DNA of 13,384 nt from a virus (lineage: Duplodnaviria > Heunggongvirae > Uroviricota > Caudoviricetes), in the IMG/VR virus record IMGVR_UViG_2548876943_000023; one strand, given 5' to 3'. This document shows, one piece after another, positions 1,275-13,159 of this stretch (position 1 is its first letter; each line of letters begins with the position of its first letter). The notes beneath the pieces are model-generated. The model saw nothing but the letters and a program-made list of their open reading frames with translations. It was not told the origin of the DNA and did no database searches. Position numbers and translations under genes: made by a program.

Positions 1275-1637
1275 CTAGTACTCAGGAAGATTTTCTAAAT
1301 TATCCTTAGATGTACCATTGGCTCTAGTTGTAATGTAATCAATGTTGTTAACACGGTCTTTAACCACTTTTTGACCCTTCTTCCACTTACCGTCATCACC
1401 TATGAAAATGGTGTAAAACGTATAACCACTATCGATCTTATTCACTACCCACTGCCGTGTTTCTGATACCCCTCCCCCAACAGTATCCCCCTTATCAACA
1501 TGCACATACACATGGGTAATGTGAGTGTGCTTGTCGTTATATCGGACTTTAGAAATAAGGTAATCAGCCCATTTATCAATCATATTCCACCATAAGTTTG
1601 AACAGGAAAAGTCCTGCAATACTCTTATAAACAACAA
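1275..1637 (-). CDS. Hypothetical AT-rich cargo protein, His-rich motif HTHITHVYVHVDKGD; unknown function
   Basis: ORF in the six-frame track. The listed start is TTG at 1637 (upstream GGTAGGAAG). An alternative ATG at 1583 (MIDKWADYL..., upstream GGTGG) would give 101 aa. Visibly AT-rich compared with the adjacent terL. Sits between the terL stop and a terminator. No family recognised. Confidence 0.5.
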   Translation of the reverse strand: MLFIRVLQDFSCSNLWWNMIDKWADYLISKVRYNDKHTHITHVYVHVDKGDTVGGGVSETRQWVVNKIDSGYTFYTIFIGDDGKWKKGQKVVKDRVNNIDYITTRANGTSKDNLENLPEY

Positions 1638-4030: not shown

Positions 4031-4463
4031 CATCGCCATACATCCAGTCGTTACGGTGTGCCGCCCGTTCTTCCTGCTCGCGATACATGCCCGCTTTACG
4101 GTTTGCTTTCGTGGCTGGATCTTCCCGTGTCGTCTTACGGTTGTGGCACGTCTGGCACAATGCCTGGTGATTCCACTCAGGCCAGAAGAGAACATCACCG
4201 CCGCCATTGATGGGAATGATGTGATCCACCACAAGAGCTGGTGTATAAATACCCTTAGCCAGACAACGCACGCATAACGGGTTTTTGCTCAGGTACAGGG
4301 CGCGGTATTTGTCCCACTGTCGGGAATACCCACGTGCGCGGCGGTGTCCCCGTCTGGCATCCTCTGCACGCCATGCAGCCCGCCTGTGCTCTTCACACTT
4401 GCCGGACTTCACGCGCTTATTACAGCCCGGCTCAGTGCATCGCCTTAATGGTTGCCACGGCAT
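4023..4463 (-). CDS. HNH endonuclease (packaging-associated)
   Basis: Cys pairs and the motif CVRCLAKGIYTPALVVDHIIPINGGGDVLFWPEWNHQALCQTCHNRKT (CxxC...DH...N...CxxCH) are typical of HNH. It is adjacent to terS/terL, as in HK97-like cos phages. Its ATG overlaps the connector stop. Confidence 0.85.
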   Translation of the reverse strand: MPWQPLRRCTEPGCNKRVKSGKCEEHRRAAWRAEDARRGHRRARGYSRQWDKYRALYLSKNPLCVRCLAKGIYTPALVVDHIIPINGGGDVLFWPEWNHQALCQTCHNRKTTREDPATKANRKAGMYREQEERAAHRNDWMYGDDD

Positions 4464-4765
4464 CAGTACACCCCCACATCACGATAAACCGACCAGAGCG
4501 CAGAAATAGCCATAGGCAGTTCCGAGTGCTCAACTGGTGAAACCGCTTCCCGGTTCTCGTACAGAAAAGCGATGTACATCAGGCAACCAACACGTATTGC
4601 CGGGGTAAATTCCAGGCCGTCTTCAAAACGTTTCCCGATATGCTTCTGGCAGGCTTCCAGCGCCGCATCGGTATATATTTGCAGAAGTTCAACCTCACCA
4701 TAAAAATCATCATCAAGGCGAAGATGGGCCATTACTTCATTAAGCGTAATTCTGGATTCACTCAT
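4463..4765 (-). CDS. Head-tail connector protein (gp6-like)
   Basis: 100 aa from ATG at 4765 (MSESRITLNEVMAHLRLDDD...), the characteristic N-terminal pattern of gp6-like connectors. Shine-Dalgarno AAGGTG is upstream. Start overlaps the portal 3' end by 8 nt. Confidence 0.75.
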   Translation of the reverse strand: MSESRITLNEVMAHLRLDDDFYGEVELLQIYTDAALEACQKHIGKRFEDGLEFTPAIRVGCLMYIAFLYENREAVSPVEHSELPMAISALWSVYRDVGVY

Positions 4766-6588: not shown

Positions 6589-7758
6589 CTAGCCAGCTTT
6601 CATTTCCAGAATTTTGATGGCGTTTGAATCCACCACACCACCGCCCAGATATTTATCCGTGTGGACCTTGTAGAATCCGGGTTCAGTAATGTTGTCCGGT
6701 CGGGTGCGAATCCCTGTTACATGATCAACGATGAAATAACCACGACTGAAATCGCCAACCGCTAGCGGTGCTTTTCCTGCGCCGATGTCCGGCATGGACT
6801 CCAGGCAGTAAACAGGACGACCAAGCAACATATCCGGCGCACCTTCTTTAAGGCTGTCGCGCCAGATATAATCGCCGTTCTCATTTTTCAGCTTCTGTAG
6901 TGTCCCTGCCGTGCCCGAGTTCATCACCCAGACGGCATTTTTGCGGTATTTCGCTTTCAGCTTGTAGAGAATGTCGATCAGTTCGTCCGCTGTAATGGCG
7001 GTTCCACTTGCCGCTACCATTTTTTCAATGGTGCCAAAAGCGCGGGTTTTGTCACTGGTCGCCGCACGGGTGTAAGCCATGAAGCCTTTCGGCTTGCCGT
7101 TACCGTCGCCATTAACAAAATCATCCTCTTCGGTGCTGGCGAACGTGTCGGCAATTTCGGAGGATAACCAGCCCAGAATATCCACCTCTGAAAAATCAAG
7201 GATTTCCTGCGTGGTTTTCGGGTAGGCGTAGATCGGATTCAGCTTGATGGTTACGCGTTCAATTTTCGGGGTGTTGGTTTCACTGCGTGCGCTGCCTTCT
7301 GTGCCTCGTCCTACAGTTGCGCCGCCAGTGGAAACCAGTTTCTGAAACTCATTTGATTTTGCGGTCTTCACGGTCGCGATCACGCGCATAACACTGTCAT
7401 CCTGTAGCTGGCGCATGACTTCGCGATCGAGCTCAGGAATTACGGTATATCCGCCATCCCTGCCGCTGTCAGTGCTGGTGGACAGTGATCGCACATCTCC
7501 GGTTACGATGTAGTTACGCAATTCATCAGATGATAATTTCTGGATGCCCGTTCCTGGCTTGCTGCGTTCTTCATCAGCCACAGACTCGAGGCGGGAAATT
7601 TCTGTGTCGAGGGAGTCGGCTTTTGCACGCAGTTCATCAAACTGTTTGCCCTCGTCATCGTTCAGGCTGCGGTTTTCACTGTCGGCTTTTTCCAGCAGAG
7701 ATCGCATCTGGTTTTTCAGGGCGGTTTTTTGCTGGCGGAGTTCGATTAATTTCTTCAT
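6589..7758 (-). CDS. Major capsid protein, HK97 family, with N-terminal coiled-coil (delta/scaffold-like) region
   Basis: 389 aa. The N-terminal ~70 aa (MKKLIELRQQKTALKNQMRSLLEKADSENRSL...) look like a coiled coil, followed by a body typical of an HK97-fold capsid. Gene order context supports the call. Confidence 0.9.
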   Translation of the reverse strand: MKKLIELRQQKTALKNQMRSLLEKADSENRSLNDDEGKQFDELRAKADSLDTEISRLESVADEERSKPGTGIQKLSSDELRNYIVTGDVRSLSTSTDSGRDGGYTVIPELDREVMRQLQDDSVMRVIATVKTAKSNEFQKLVSTGGATVGRGTEGSARSETNTPKIERVTIKLNPIYAYPKTTQEILDFSEVDILGWLSSEIADTFASTEEDDFVNGDGNGKPKGFMAYTRAATSDKTRAFGTIEKMVAASGTAITADELIDILYKLKAKYRKNAVWVMNSGTAGTLQKLKNENGDYIWRDSLKEGAPDMLLGRPVYCLESMPDIGAGKAPLAVGDFSRGYFIVDHVTGIRTRPDNITEPGFYKVHTDKYLGGGVVDSNAIKILEMKAG

Positions 7759-7828
7759 GAAGGTTTTCTCGTATTGGTTAAGATTCAGGACGTGAAACCA
7801 ACACGGAGGGAGCGCCGCCCGACACTCT

Positions 7829-7878
7829 CGGCATCTCGCAGATCAACCCGGCATCGCGCAGGGGGTCAGGCGGCATTG
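7829..7878. promoter_or_regulatory. Phased direct repeats CGGCATCTCGCAG / CGGCATCGCGCAG / CGGCATTG upstream of the capsid operon
   Basis: Repeats start at 7829, 7849 and 7871, about two helical turns apart, and lie 70-120 bp upstream of the capsid ATG on the minus strand. Possibly activator sites; function inferred. Confidence 0.3.
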
Positions 7879-7950
7879 TGGCGGCTCACGTCTGAGTGCC
7901 ACGCTCCAACATATACATAAAAATCAGTATGTAAACACCTGTCAGTCAGA

Positions 7951-7980
7951 CCGAACAACCACGAAAGAACACGAACAAAT
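7951..7980. repeat. Three tandem decamers CCGAACAACC / ACGAAAGAAC / ACGAACAAAT directly upstream of the cassette promoter
   Basis: Read from the sequence. Same ACGAACAA motif family as 201-230. Confidence 0.5.
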
Positions 7981-7982
7981 AA

Positions 7983-8044
7983 TTTACAAAAGAAGTAAAC
8001 CATGGCCTATTATTGCTGTCTCTGACTACAACAAAGGACGCATC
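7983..8044 (+). promoter_or_regulatory. Sigma70-like promoter and RBS for the antisense cargo gene
   Basis: TTTACA (7983-7988), about 18-19 bp spacer, TATTAT (8008-8013). Shine-Dalgarno AAAGGA (8033-8038) is 6 nt before the ATG at 8045. Confidence 0.45.
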
Positions 8045-8551
8045 ATGAATTTAAGCGCAATGGTATACCCTGATACTTTCATAATTAATGGCGAATCATT
8101 CAGAGGTAAAAGAAACGCAAAAGAAAACAAGGTATTAATTCCATATACAAATGAACCGGAAGTAACTATTGGTCAACACATTATCCAGCGTGTCGGTAAA
8201 AACGAGATAAATCTAAAAATTATAGATATGAAGTTGCTTCCCAATGGAACCCTCAGACAGGGAACCAATCATCCAAATATGTTGACTCTCTATATTGAAA
8301 ATATCACGGGAAATGAACATATGACGCCAACTAAAAGTAATACATTTAACATTGGTTCAATTAGTGGTGATCAAGTGCAGATAGGTGAGCATAACCATAT
8401 GCTGGTAAACATCAGCATCACTGAACTGGTTGAAAAAGTCGCTAAATCGGGGGATGTACAAGCCAAATCAGTATTAAAGCAGTTACTGGAAAACAGTACC
8501 GTTGCCAGCATTGTTGGGGCTGGCGCAAGTGCCCTAATAGGCTTACTGTAA
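8045..8551 (+). CDS. Hypothetical cargo protein (168 aa) with hydrophobic C-terminal segment; candidate defence or helper-interference effector
   Basis: Clean ORF on the opposite strand to all backbone genes. Visibly AT-rich, with N/I/K-rich codon usage. Has its own promoter, Shine-Dalgarno and terminator. The C-terminal 17 aa (TVASIVGAGASALIGLL) form a small-residue-rich hydrophobic helix. No family recognised. Confidence 0.7.
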   Translation: MNLSAMVYPDTFIINGESFRGKRNAKENKVLIPYTNEPEVTIGQHIIQRVGKNEINLKIIDMKLLPNGTLRQGTNHPNMLTLYIENITGNEHMTPTKSNTFNIGSISGDQVQIGEHNHMLVNISITELVEKVAKSGDVQAKSVLKQLLENSTVASIVGAGASALIGLL

Positions 8552-8557
8552 AAAAAT

Positions 8558-8588
8558 GGCCTGGATTTTACCAGGCCTTTATTATTTT
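8558..8588. terminator. Bidirectional rho-independent terminator between convergent genes
   Basis: GGCCTGG-atttta-CCAGGCC, followed by TTTATTATTTT on the plus strand and, in reverse complement, by ATTTTTTT on the minus strand. Confidence 0.7.
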
Positions 8589-8835
8589 ACCGTTTCACGG
8601 GATCGCGCATTCTGCGCCTTATTTTCCACAGATATTCGATCATCGCTTCCACCTGTTCACGGTTGGTTGCGAAAATTTCCCCGGTCAGTGAGCTACGCAG
8701 AAAATCATGATGATCCACAACAAACAACGCATCGGAAGAAAGCAGACGGCGATATTTTTTTGCTGTCATGGTTTCCAGATCATCAAAATCATGAAACTTT
8801 TTATGTTGCTGGACTTCTTCAAATGTCACTGGCAT
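8587..8835 (-). CDS. Hypothetical small protein (82 aa)
   Basis: ATG at 8835 (MPVTFEEVQQHKKFHDFDDLE...) with a GAGGGGA Shine-Dalgarno, 16 bp after the SSB-like stop. The N-terminal extension shown in the ORF track would overlap the SSB-like gene and is rejected. Confidence 0.55.
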   Translation of the reverse strand: MPVTFEEVQQHKKFHDFDDLETMTAKKYRRLLSSDALFVVDHHDFLRSSLTGEIFATNREQVEAMIEYLWKIRRRMRDPVKR

Positions 8836-8851
8836 GTCCCCTCTGTTGTCG

Positions 8852-9277
8852 CTAAAACGGTATGTTGTCCCCGTACGGATCATCGTGCTGACCCGTCTGC
8901 TGTTTTGCCCTGTTCAGTGCGTCAGTCGCCTGGCTCTGCTGGCCTTTTTTGCCGCCCGGTCGCACCGTTCGCGCACTGATTACGCTGTCTGCGATAACCT
9001 GCCAGCCTTGCCGCGTTTCGCCGTTCTGGCCTGTCCACTGGCTTACCTGCATGTTACCCACCACGCTCACCAGTTCGCCTTTGTGGTGTTTTGCCAGTGC
9101 ATCGGCCTGTCTGCCAAACGCCAGAACAGAAAGCCACATCGTCACCGCACCATCATCAGCCTGACTGCATGGCTGGGGGACCGCCATACTTACCATCGCC
9201 ATTTGTGTACCCTTGCTGGTGGTCTTTAACTGCGGGTCATTTGTCAGCCGCCCGTAAGCGGCTATCTGTGCTGTCAT
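8852..9277 (-). CDS. SSB-like OB-fold single-stranded DNA-binding protein (short form)
   Basis: The N-terminal pattern (IAAYGRLTNDPQLK...) and the core (W-LSVLAFGRQAD-ALAKHHKGELVSVVGNMQVSQWTGQNGETRQGWQVIADSV) resemble bacterial SSB. The C-terminal tip ...DDPYGDNIPF matches the SSB acidic tail ending in IPF. ATGA overlap with the upstream ORF and GGAGGGA Shine-Dalgarno. Confidence 0.65.
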   Translation of the reverse strand: MTAQIAAYGRLTNDPQLKTTSKGTQMAMVSMAVPQPCSQADDGAVTMWLSVLAFGRQADALAKHHKGELVSVVGNMQVSQWTGQNGETRQGWQVIADSVISARTVRPGGKKGQQSQATDALNRAKQQTGQHDDPYGDNIPF

Positions 9278-11916: not shown

Positions 11917-12237
11917 TTATCCCCGATTTGAATCAGTATTCGCTTTCTTTATGGCATTTAATGCATCTGCGGCATTTTCAATGGTGCACCGTAACGAAAT
12001 ATCAAACTGCCCAAGCATTGCCAGTAACAAACCGATATTACCCATATCAATGCGCATAGCCTTTTCGTCATAGTCCTCATTTTCTGACGCATGCCACATC
12101 AGGCTACCAATTGACGCAATACCCATTGATATATTGTCAGTAGCCCCATCCGCAGCGGAATAAACCTTTTTAGCAATATCATGCTCACAGTTAAAATGCG
12201 GATTAATCAGGTACTGGTAATTTGACATATCAGGCAT
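11917..12237 (-). CDS. Hypothetical protein (106 aa)
   Basis: ATG at 12237 with an AGGGGGTG Shine-Dalgarno; 6 bp before the next ORF. No family recognised. Confidence 0.55.
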   Translation of the reverse strand: MPDMSNYQYLINPHFNCEHDIAKKVYSAADGATDNISMGIASIGSLMWHASENEDYDEKAMRIDMGNIGLLLAMLGQFDISLRCTIENAADALNAIKKANTDSNRG

Positions 12238-12433
12238 GGCACACCCCCTGACGAATACGGGCGGCGAATACCATCACGCAGCCAGCCGGGGATTGCTGGC
12301 GTGCTTCCTGTTCGCTGGTGGCCACGATGTGAATCACGCGCGGTTGTGCCGTGCTCAGGGCGATAAAACGCCAGATGAATTTATTCAGGTTGTGCGAGTC
12401 CCGCCCTTGCGGGTGTGTGGTATGATTTAACAT
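12230..12433 (-). CDS. Possible small protein (67 aa), first gene of the minus-strand early operon
   Basis: ATG at 12433 with a GAGGT Shine-Dalgarno; overlaps the next gene's start by 8 nt. It is the C-terminal part of a long non-protein-like ORF in the track, so it is uncertain. Confidence 0.3.
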   Translation of the reverse strand: MLNHTTHPQGRDSHNLNKFIWRFIALSTAQPRVIHIVATSEQEARQQSPAGCVMVFAARIRQGVCHA

Positions 12434-12529
12434 AGCTACCTCGATACTTCTGCTATCGTTGGTGGTTAGAAGCCCGGTTAGTGTTAGCGCACTGCCGGGT
12501 TTCGTCGTTTCTGCACCTTGCATCAACAA

Positions 12530-12584
12530 GGTGTTAAACACCAATTTAAGCCTAGGTGTTAAACACGTCAAGTGTTGAACACTT
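12530..12584. promoter_or_regulatory. Three palindromic operator-like sites in a divergent promoter region
   Basis: GGTGTTAAACACC (12530-12542), GTGTTAAACAC (12556-12566) and AAGTGTTGAACACTT (12570-12584). A promoter-like TTGAAC-N17-CATACT overlaps site 3. The region lies between the minus-strand operon start (12433) and the plus-strand small ORF (12633). Confidence 0.55.
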
Positions 12585-12632
12585 ATTTTTTTTCCTGCAT
12601 ACTGCATTTGTTTTTTGTAAGGAGTACACAAC

Positions 12633-12812
12633 ATGGCGACAAAAGCAGTAAACGCAAAATCACAAACAGTTGCGGCAAGGGTTCCGCATGAAGTTATGAA
12701 CAATGTTGAGGCGGTAAAAATGCCTGGTGAAAGTACAGGGCAGTTTGTAACAGCAGCATTAAAGCGAGAAGTTGAATACCGCCAGCGTCGCAAGGCCAAA
12801 GAGCAGGAGTAA
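12633..12812 (+). CDS. Small ribbon-helix-helix-like DNA-binding protein (59 aa), candidate repressor
   Basis: Not in the ORF track (under 60 aa). Strong Shine-Dalgarno AAGGAG 8 nt before ATG. Translation MATKAVNAKSQTVAARVPHEVMNNVEAVKMPGESTGQFVTAALKREVEYRQRRKAKEQE fits a strand-helix-G-helix RHH pattern. Confidence 0.55.
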   Translation: MATKAVNAKSQTVAARVPHEVMNNVEAVKMPGESTGQFVTAALKREVEYRQRRKAKEQE

Positions 12813-12869
12813 CCATCACCAGCGCCGTGGTGCGGTGAACTGTGGCGCACAGGGTTACAGGTATCTACG

Positions 12870-13049
12870 ATGACTGACAAATCATTAAAGAAATTATCCT
12901 CATCCAAGAAAAAACAACGCAAAAATGCGGTAAACGAACATGAACCGGAGAGATTCGCACCATGTGCGTTTATCCTTGAGAAGTACCTTAAAGAGTATTC
13001 TAGGAAAATACGCTCATTGCAGGCATGGCAGCGAATCGAGCCAGACTGA
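12870..13049 (+). CDS. Possible small Lys-rich protein (59 aa)
   Basis: ATG at 12870 with a weak AGGT Shine-Dalgarno. MTDKSLKKLSSSKKKQRKNAVNEHEPERFAPCAFILEKYLKEYSRKIRSLQAWQRIEPD. Uncertain. Confidence 0.3.
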   Translation: MTDKSLKKLSSSKKKQRKNAVNEHEPERFAPCAFILEKYLKEYSRKIRSLQAWQRIEPD

Positions 13050-13113
13050 TAGCATTGCCCACTAGCCGACAACCTGGTATTCTGGATATGCTCAAGTTTA
13101 GTGTTATGCCACT

Positions 13114-13141
13114 GGCGACCGCCCCCGGTCGCCTTTGTTTT
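13114..13141 (+). terminator. Rho-independent terminator ending the plus-strand small-ORF transcript
   Basis: GGCGACC-gccccc-GGTCGCC followed by TTTGTTTT. Confidence 0.7.
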
Positions 13142-13159
13142 ATGTGTCATAGCTCCCCC

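Follow-up and report, generated by a model that had tools for sequence, protein, structure and literature searches.

A cargo gene with a RHIM-like motif, located in the mid-island hotspot for immune genes in a capsid-forming phage satellite

Introduction

In Escherichia coli, the Bab/Agp system uses an amyloid motif, BASS11, to control a membrane-targeting abortive infection effector, and it is encoded in prophage hotspots (10.1101/2024.11.07.622273). In Bab, as in HET-S and HELLP, a hydrophobic helix is set free when a short amyloid motif folds on a template, and this helix then attacks the membrane (10.1101/2024.11.07.622273). EACC1, a small protein that forms pores, is latent until a neighboring protease activates it (10.1101/2025.11.14.688446). 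Here, we analyzed a 13,384-nucleotide stretch of viral DNA (Caudoviricetes; IMG/VR record IMGVR_UViG_2548876943_000023), hereafter the window, which comprises most of a capsid-forming satellite of the phage-inducible chromosomal island (PICI) type. Our subject is ORF168, a plus-strand open reading frame (ORF) encoding 168 amino acids. As accessory cargo, it occupies the immune hotspot in the middle of this satellite, and its product joins in a single chain a conserved motif resembling RHIM (RIP homotypic interaction motif) and a C-terminal hydrophobic helix.

The hotspot is already recognized in the literature, the gene family is not. The PICI region after pri has been experimentally validated as a location of immune genes, with Tai (PMC11364771, He et al. 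2024), and the mid-island region of capsid-forming PICIs (cf-PICIs) is expected to hold immune genes (10.1101/2025.02.11.637232, He et al.). Tai genes are also located before terS in lambdoid phages, and at their discovery they were missed by both PADLOC and DefenseFinder (PMC11364771). The PICI-encoded systems of Fillol-Salom et al. 2022 lie at the island ends, not in this slot (according to PMC11364771).

ORF168 shares with Bab/Agp the enterobacterial setting in prophage and defense hotspots, and the combination of a short amyloid-type motif with a small helical domain sheathing a hydrophobic helix, presumed to line the pore in Bab. Bab/Agp acts by abortive infection through membrane damage, and for ORF168 the same mode is proposed here. 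The differences are substantial. Bab/Agp consists of two genes, an effector carrying the motif at its C-terminus and a 1094-residue sensor carrying it at its N-terminus, whereas ORF168 is solitary and carries its motif internally. The hydrophobic helix of Bab is N-terminal (Babybell domain, MEPIS motif) and that of ORF168 is C-terminal, with no relation in sequence or fold; the MEPIS-type N-terminal helix cupped by about four helices, which characterizes the Bell and Babybell effector domains, was not found in ORF168. A two-component amyloid signalling system (Bell-BASS/NLR or Bab/Agp) was rejected, because a regex scan detected no neighboring ORF with the motif. Outside the family gene itself, the core regex was absent from 204 kb of sequence, covering 14 loci in six frames.

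In common with EACC1, HET-S and HELLP, ORF168 would be a small non-enzymatic latent protein, which upon a trigger proceeds through β-strand-mediated oligomerization to membrane permeabilization. However, activation depends on an adjacent protease for EACC1 and on a partner NLR or a prion for HET-S, and ORF168 has neither as a neighbor; its domain order differs from both the EACC1 and the HET-S/HELLP types. No Pfam match to EACC1 or to the HET-S/HELLP families was obtained for ORF168, and no protease gene was adjacent in the satellites examined. Membership in Tai was suggested by the location, the size class and a Pectobacterium homologue, and was rejected by hhalign, with a probability of 0.1% against TaiEcA (phi80 orf63) and of 0.7% against TaiSalA (FSL SP-016). 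The likeness to Tai concerns the genetic setting. Tai, known from PICIs, prophages and P4-like satellites, are single small genes (~170-210 residues), which in PICIs follow pri and precede the packaging genes, and in lambdoid phages precede terS, and the ORF168 family takes corresponding positions, after pri in satellites and from Rz to HNH/terS in the lambdoid phage L008. Tai proteins are all-helical, without a RHIM-like motif and without a hydrophobic tail, whereas ORF168 has both.

Results

The ORF168 coding sequence starts with ATG and runs from 8045 to 8551 on the plus strand (168 codons plus stop), with a Shine-Dalgarno sequence (AAGGA, 8034-8038) placed 6 nt before the start codon. A first-pass annotation, made by a model from the sequence alone, had called this ORF and its good Shine-Dalgarno, and had described it as AT-rich. 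All three points hold. The G+C content of ORF168 is 37.9%, with 35.5% at third codon positions, compared with 51-53% and 57-60% in the capsid, portal and TerL genes. ORF168 is a real gene under purifying selection and not a chance ORF, because about 100 full-length homologues (167-171 residues) exist in Enterobacterales, Pseudomonas, Shewanella, Xanthomonas and other Gammaproteobacteria, and because the ratio of nonsynonymous to synonymous substitution rates (dN/dS) in the family is 0.03-0.24, as calculated from only those pairs in which dS was measurable and not saturated. In the analysis by domain, most pairs had a saturated dS. The N-terminal domain evolves faster only in the lineage of the window compared with the others, and since this faster rate is not seen in every pair, we make no claim of a general diversifying selection on it.

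In the annotation of E. coli TUM12357, the product is the hypothetical protein WP_024226529.1. The first-pass annotation could match it to no family. This is true for Pfam and NCBIfam, where full-length searches gave no match, and for PADLOC, but the protein aligns end to end with phrog_5789 (E 1e-85), a PHROGs family of unknown function. No housekeeping or structural phage homologue, which had been named as evidence that would speak against a defense gene, turned up among the searches. The literature searched contains no paper mentioning WP_024226529, WP_001053661 or phrog_5789. The gene family is uncharacterized, its RHIM-like motif was, as far as we found, previously unremarked, and the single-chain architecture is new.

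The satellite carries on the minus strand the modules AlpA, D5-type primase and single-stranded DNA-binding protein (SSB), followed on the packaging side by the HK97-type major capsid, prohead protease, portal, head-tail connector, HNH endonuclease and TerS/TerL genes, all recognized by Pfam. In E. coli TUM12357, the interval between thiM and rcnR holds a near-identical island, which includes an integrase. An integrase, AlpA and primase, together with an own capsid and packaging set, no tail genes and an island size of ~15 kb, are the hallmarks by which cf-PICIs are recognized, and all of them were found, through Pfam matches and in the annotation of the TUM12357 island. The best genome match covers 92% of the window, and no genome of the collection contains all of it, because other island regions vary too. 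ORF168 is positioned between the SSB/primase side and the HK97-type capsid gene, in agreement with its earlier placement between the replication and capsid modules.

This position is a true variable hotspot with fixed boundaries in otherwise near-identical E. coli islands. A megablast search with positions 7760-8900 against 5,426 complete E. coli genomes retrieved the slot flanks in 156 genomes, 51 of which had ORF168. The slot states were read from an evenly spaced sample of 40 hits. ORF168 was present in 13 and the slot was empty in 19, while two hits had a different insert of similar size and six were divergent. The empty-site hits span ~520-590 bp, and the divergent ones match only the capsid-proximal 140-180 bp. 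In three islands examined, there is no gene between the capsid leader and the 82-residue gene on the other side of the slot. The alternative cargo is a plus-strand ORF of 157 residues (ORF157; WP_001293446.1, E. coli TUM9757, L003 2794-3267). ORF157 was rejected as a relative of ORF168 (BLASTP E 4.9), has no Pfam or PADLOC match and no similarity to Tai, and is a second uncharacterized hotspot cargo. The comparison of related islands, which the first-pass annotation had suggested as a check for a variable hotspot, thus showed a locus that is empty or occupied by ORF168 or by an unrelated ORF.

In the alignment, all slot states, whether filled, empty or with other cargo, end on the left in GAACAAATAATTTACAAAA and on the right in a GGCCTGG...CCAGGCC-type hairpin. 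The left boundary is a backbone block (GAACAAATAATTTACAAAA, 7973-7991), which contains the proposed -35 box TTTACA (7983-7988) and after which the sequences diverge from 7992 onward. The block GAACAAATAATTTACAA (7973-7989) is invariant over five genera, comprising E. coli, Klebsiella, Serratia, Yersinia and one further island. The right boundary is an intrinsic terminator, GGCCTGG-ATTTTA-CCAGGCC (8558-8577), preceded by an A-run and followed by a T-run, and it scored on both strands, so that the bidirectional terminator reported earlier is real. Its hairpin is kept across genera, including behind different cargo, and a homologous hairpin is found in the empty sites. The sequence surrounding both boundary elements has diverged between genera. 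Because the -35 box and the terminator occur in empty sites and are conserved in islands of other genera, we assign them to the backbone; the inserted segment (~7992-8555) consists only of a possible -10 box, the Shine-Dalgarno sequence and the ORF. A self-contained cassette, as first described, is thus an overstatement, and its own sigma70-like promoter stands only in part. Both TTTACA and the candidate, unverified -10 box TATTAT (8008-8013, plus strand) are present, but their spacer of 19 nt is outside the 16-18 nt optimum, a promoter scan with 16-18 nt spacers did not report the pair, and the -35 box belongs to the backbone. The TATTAT box is not conserved in the slot of other lineages. A promoter of ORF168 is plausible but unproven.

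The most informative feature of ORF168 is a conserved RHIM-like motif, which the first-pass annotation had missed. The motif region (residues 100-124, TFNIGSISGDQVQIGEHNHMLVNIS, 8342-8416, plus strand) has four positions that are invariant in the family, I103, Q112, G114 and N117, and its core in the window protein is V111-Q112-I113-G114-x-x-N117-x-M119 (VQIGEHNHM). VQIGEHNHM resembles the RHIM core, a likeness that was put to searches. With the C-terminal module of the window protein (C-module, residues ~90-168), the Pfam family RHIM (PF12721) is the top match (16.7 bits, E 0.005). Of 48 C-module relatives, six also match RHIM with an E-value of 0.01 or lower, the lowest being 1.1e-5 (~25 bits, extrapolated); scores of C-module relatives are 14.8-18.4 bits. 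Beyond RHIM and H2TH_5, no Pfam family was found for ORF168 or its C-module at E up to 10. When a profile built from 30 C-modules was searched against all sequences in the PDB, the top seven matches were all RHIM fibril constructs of RIPK1/RIPK3 (E 0.03-0.38), with a viral RHIM protein lower in the list; a full-length profile gave only a chance match to CsrA. Moreover, the NCBI name of one family member is "RIP homotypic interaction motif-containing protein".

The motif shares with the RHIMs of RIPK1, RIPK3, ZBP1 and TRIF the core phi-Q-phi-G-x-x-N-x-(M/L) and flanking strands rich in N, G and S, and RHIM-related motifs include the fungal PP and the bacterial BASS3. The partner domains differ, as ORF168 has no kinase, Bell or HeLo domain and no NLR. 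The RHIM signature is G-phi-Q-phi-G (10.1101/2020.01.06.895854), and relatives of ORF168 such as P0240 and P0209 carry GIQIG. The resemblance could reflect either homology or convergence.

AlphaFold2, run on a 37-sequence alignment, gave a model of ORF168 with a mean predicted local distance difference test (pLDDT) score of 77.6. Residues 1-86 (N-domain; 8045-8302, plus strand) are predicted to form a small split β-barrel (pLDDT ~78-89), for which we propose a role as specificity or sensor domain. According to structure comparison, its fold resembles a head-tail neck component, a very common small barrel, and Foldseek against the viral models of BFVD returned nothing informative for ORF168. 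A disordered linker (residues 87-100) leads to three short low-confidence strands (103-122), and helices follow at 125-134, 138-149 and 151-167. In the monomer models, the motif region has a low pLDDT or is disordered, and the helical bundle is confident.

The first two helices (8417-8491, plus strand) are amphipathic, with hydrophobic moments of 2.6 and 1.5, a pLDDT of 82-96 in a model of the C-module, and the conserved pattern LVEKVA...D.(E/Q)AKS.LK.LLEN. The third (residues 151-168, 8495-8548, plus strand) is hydrophobic, rich in small residues and located at the protein end, and it has a glycine-zipper-like face (A154-G158-S162-G166). The terminal hydrophobic helix of the first-pass annotation is indeed present, since the segment TVASIVGAGASALIGLL has a Kyte-Doolittle mean of 1.91 and is helical in AlphaFold2, but it is not a clear transmembrane anchor, with a Hessa-scale sum of ~+1.4 kcal/mol. 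In most of 84 family members, the tail reaches the C-terminus or stops 1-2 residues short of it (median KD17 1.78). In the C-module model it is kinked at GAG and packed inside the bundle. These properties suit a helix entering the membrane only when clustered, and no less one that remains packed within a soluble bundle.

Searched exhaustively with a profile, 1.84 billion representatives yielded 262 proteins. Many of them align only over ~90-168 and have unrelated N-terminal regions of 70-170 residues, some of which are Zn-ribbon-like or winged helix-turn-helix-like. The safe statement is that domains have been shuffled around a constant C-module. A separate acquisition had been suggested earlier for ORF168, but it is not a one-off, because homologues with 53-65% identity fill the slot in satellites of Klebsiella, Serratia and Yersinia and in one further island. 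Compared with the window protein, their C-modules are 68-88% identical, a conservation equal to that of the capsid protein (68-77%), and their N-domains 41-44%, or 18% in one strongly diverged variant. This asymmetry between N-domain and C-module is not present in all pairs.

Other members of the family are found outside satellites. The homologue in the lambdoid phage L008 (27% identity) is located between Rz and HNH/terS, directly after the lysis genes, at a moron site. A homologue in a P2-like Pseudomonas prophage lies in the accessory region and adjoins a HEPN protein and a subtilase. Chromosomal members directly follow the PADLOC candidates PDC-S31 (Xanthomonas, Photobacterium) or PDC-S60 (Shewanella), so that the PADLOC matches beside family members amount to PDC-S31 twice, PDC-S60, and the subtilase plus HEPN protein. 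A conserved upstream partner was rejected, as the chromosomal upstream genes are mutually unrelated (18-31% identity) and represent different PADLOC candidates. We conclude that there is no obligate partner, because the neighbors change from locus to locus. In Xanthomonas (L012 4900-5844) and Photobacterium (L024 6907-7638), the family gene is directly downstream of a DUF2971 / PDC-S31 gene. This adjacency in two distant taxa may represent a functional pairing or just a shared defense islet.

Discussion

The hotspot, its correspondence to the immune region of the literature, and the PADLOC candidates next to chromosomal members partly support the defense reading that the first-pass annotation had offered, a function which is here read from sequence. 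We consider some anti-phage role, or a role against other mobile genetic elements, reasonably probable for ORF168. How it would act is a more tentative matter, and the mechanism we propose, by analogy, is a sensor joined to an amyloid-like switch and a membrane effector. The N-terminal β-barrel would bind a component of the phage, or co-assemble with it, perhaps a head-tail neck component alike in fold, and this would cluster several copies of ORF168. The disordered RHIM-like segment (VQIGxxNxM) could then zip into an amyloid-like β assembly and in this way release the glycine-zipper helix at the C-terminus from the small bundle of helices. Clustered tail helices would insert into the inner membrane and permeabilize it, thus ending the infection by abortive infection. 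Our reason for proposing a single-chain abortive infection effector is the layout, which in a rearranged order follows the same logic as that of HET-S, HELLP and E. coli Bab, and we infer all steps from phage-component binding onward.

Several observations weigh against this proposal. ORF168 matched no PADLOC-DB v2.0.0 model at E up to 1, and neither did any of five relatives, whether their N-domain was the same or another. Guilt by location is weak evidence for defense, and the retention of the slot across genera could reflect a role in satellite biology. With regard to the motif, the 16.7 bits of the window C-module are below the Pfam gathering cutoff for RHIM (20 bits), this sequence alone retrieves no RHIM chains from the PDB, and the first G of the signature is Q110 in the window protein. 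We call the motif RHIM-like, rather than counting it as a member of the RHIM family, because single scores are marginal, the window sequence alone fails in the PDB, and Q replaces the first G. The motif also lies inside the protein, whereas known bacterial amyloid-signalling proteins have theirs at a terminus, and it lacks a motif-bearing partner gene. For the N-domain, PilZ and FMN-binding barrels score nearly equal to the neck-like match. Finally, the tail is marginally hydrophobic over its 17 residues, that of the lambdoid homologue is less hydrophobic still and carries a lysine, and a helix that is modeled as packed in the bundle may never enter the membrane.

Some of these features could be read differently. 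The neck-like barrel might act as a decoy by capping or sequestering the heads, connectors or tails of phages, the C-module would cluster it or tether it to the membrane, and the cell would not be killed. Competing or helper heads would fail to join tails, and the tails would be freed for satellite capsids, a logic as in Tai; we regard such an interference with assembly as unlikely. A membrane-anchored superinfection-exclusion or lysogenic-conversion protein, whose constitutive tail anchor would keep a cytoplasmic N-domain at the inner membrane to block DNA entry or some other early step there, without self-assembly or death, seems to us more unlikely still. The hydrophobic segment is at the extreme C-terminus in nearly all members, the orientation and the separate terminator are typical of morons expressed in the lysogen, and the family occupies moron sites in prophages. 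However, 17 residues with a Hessa-scale sum of +1.4 kcal/mol are marginal as a stable anchor, a cytoplasmic N-domain is badly placed for an injection block, and the strict conservation of QxGxxN would be left unexplained.

A role in the life cycle of the satellite itself, such as lysis timing, a holin- or antiholin-like activity, or control of the divergent packaging operon, would account for the preservation of the same slot beside the packaging-operon control region in several genera, and would agree with the hydrophobic tail and with the lambdoid homologue directly following lysis genes. Yet about two-thirds of the otherwise near-identical E. coli islands are without ORF168 or have other cargo, so it is dispensable, the family is also found outside phage-like elements beside candidate defense genes, and features of holins such as dual starts or multiple transmembrane segments are lacking. 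We rate this role as very improbable. Slightly less probable again is an anti-defense decoy, in which the RHIM-like motif would co-aggregate with and disarm an amyloid-signalling abortive infection system of the host, protecting the satellite or prophage and its helper in the manner of the herpesvirus proteins M45 and ICP6. Such a decoy finds support in the motif itself, in the presence of amyloid-signalling defense (Bab/Agp) in E. coli, and in the viral RHIM decoys established in animals (PMC7375649). Still, the motif is always accompanied by a helical hydrophobic C-terminal part, needless for a simple decoy, the orientation suggests lysogenic and not early lytic expression, and no motif-bearing host partner is nearby.

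Returning to the sensor-switch-effector proposal, its broadest form takes ORF168 as the first of a new class of immune effectors made of one protein, in which an exchangeable sensor, in ORF168 one mimicking a phage neck protein, is connected by a RHIM-like amyloid switch to a membrane-puncturing glycine-zipper helix, a class spread across Gammaproteobacteria by tail-stealing satellites and prophages. We hold this to be rather unlikely, but its consequences are worth stating. If true, this class would give unicellular bacteria an all-in-one equivalent of RIPK/MLKL or NWD2/HET-S signalling that works without a separate receptor. If the proposed mechanism as such holds, amyloid-type cell-death signalling by RHIM/BASS would extend from two-gene pairs of receptor and effector, mostly of multicellular bacteria, to a compact single chain, in a format common in Enterobacterales, Pseudomonas, Vibrionaceae and Xanthomonas and carried between genera by capsid-forming satellites. 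A "switch plus effector" module of 70 residues, present on many sensors, would help to reveal the targets of these sensors and possible bacterial roots of animal RHIMs. ORF168 is a good testable lead, not yet a discovery. It is a defense candidate missed by current tools such as PADLOC, and its analysis has now defined the exact sequence boundaries of a cf-PICI cargo slot. Should it prove not to act in defense, the conserved slot and the motif would remain signs of a widespread mobile-element gene in need of explanation.

Additional features of the island and of the family

The slot is flanked by two minus-strand genes. The HK97-type major capsid gene (6589-7758; Pfam Phage_capsid, E 2e-71) is the first gene of the packaging operon and divergent from ORF168. 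The 82-residue gene (8587-8835; phrog_1957) is the last gene of the replication-side operon, and it is not a partner of ORF168, because it is present with the slot filled or empty. Between the capsid gene and the slot, the leader (7760-7991) contains blocks that are invariant over five genera amid diverging surroundings, namely GACGTGAAACCA (~7789-7800), the inverted repeat GTGGCGGCTCACGTCTGAGTGCCAC (~7878-7902), a promoter-like sequence on the minus strand, TTTACA-16-TATGTT (7935 to 7908), and the above-mentioned GAACAAATAATTTACAA. These blocks probably represent the promoter of the packaging operon together with regulator sites or a leader RNA structure; Rfam has no family anywhere in the window.

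The statement of the first-pass annotation that all backbone genes are on the minus strand is nearly correct, except that a related island annotates a plus-strand YlcI/YnfO gene at window positions 12633-12812. A minus-strand ORF of 306 residues (12230-13150) spans this regulatory region, for which that related island annotates only a short Icd-like gene and the plus-strand YlcI/YnfO. The 306-residue ORF is probably spurious.

Directly after terL, the window has a DUF3892 gene (1275-1637, minus strand, listed with 120 residues; 38% G+C, phrog_32719). It sits in a second variable region of cf-PICIs, where the TUM12357 island has a different gene of 93 residues, and it is another candidate cargo gene. 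A further difference between islands is found between the portal and HNH genes, the interval described as the tail-specificity region of cf-PICIs (10.1101/2025.02.11.637232). Here, a Phage_connect_1 gene stands alone in the window (4463-4765) and in the Yersinia island L019, and the Serratia island L017 (3399-3734) and the Yersinia island L020 (3437-3772) have an additional Phage_HCP head-closure gene. Among the islands compared, the presence of Phage_HCP and that of ORF168 formed no complementary pattern.

Within the family, a few copies have an odd architecture. P0123 (326 residues) and P0130 (334 residues) consist of the N-domain and the motif followed by a long extension, in one case a GNAT acetyltransferase, in place of a normal C-module, and the Photobacterium copy P0255 (L024 7860-8387) has a truncated N-domain. 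These may be decayed or recombined copies. Lastly, the record of the Klebsiella phage P12620-1 (PQ569648, 106.5 kb) ends in a cf-PICI-like block of capsid, protease and portal genes (96.5-106.5 kb), which also has an ORF168 homologue and a primase-sized gene, so that this record may include a co-packaged or co-assembled satellite.

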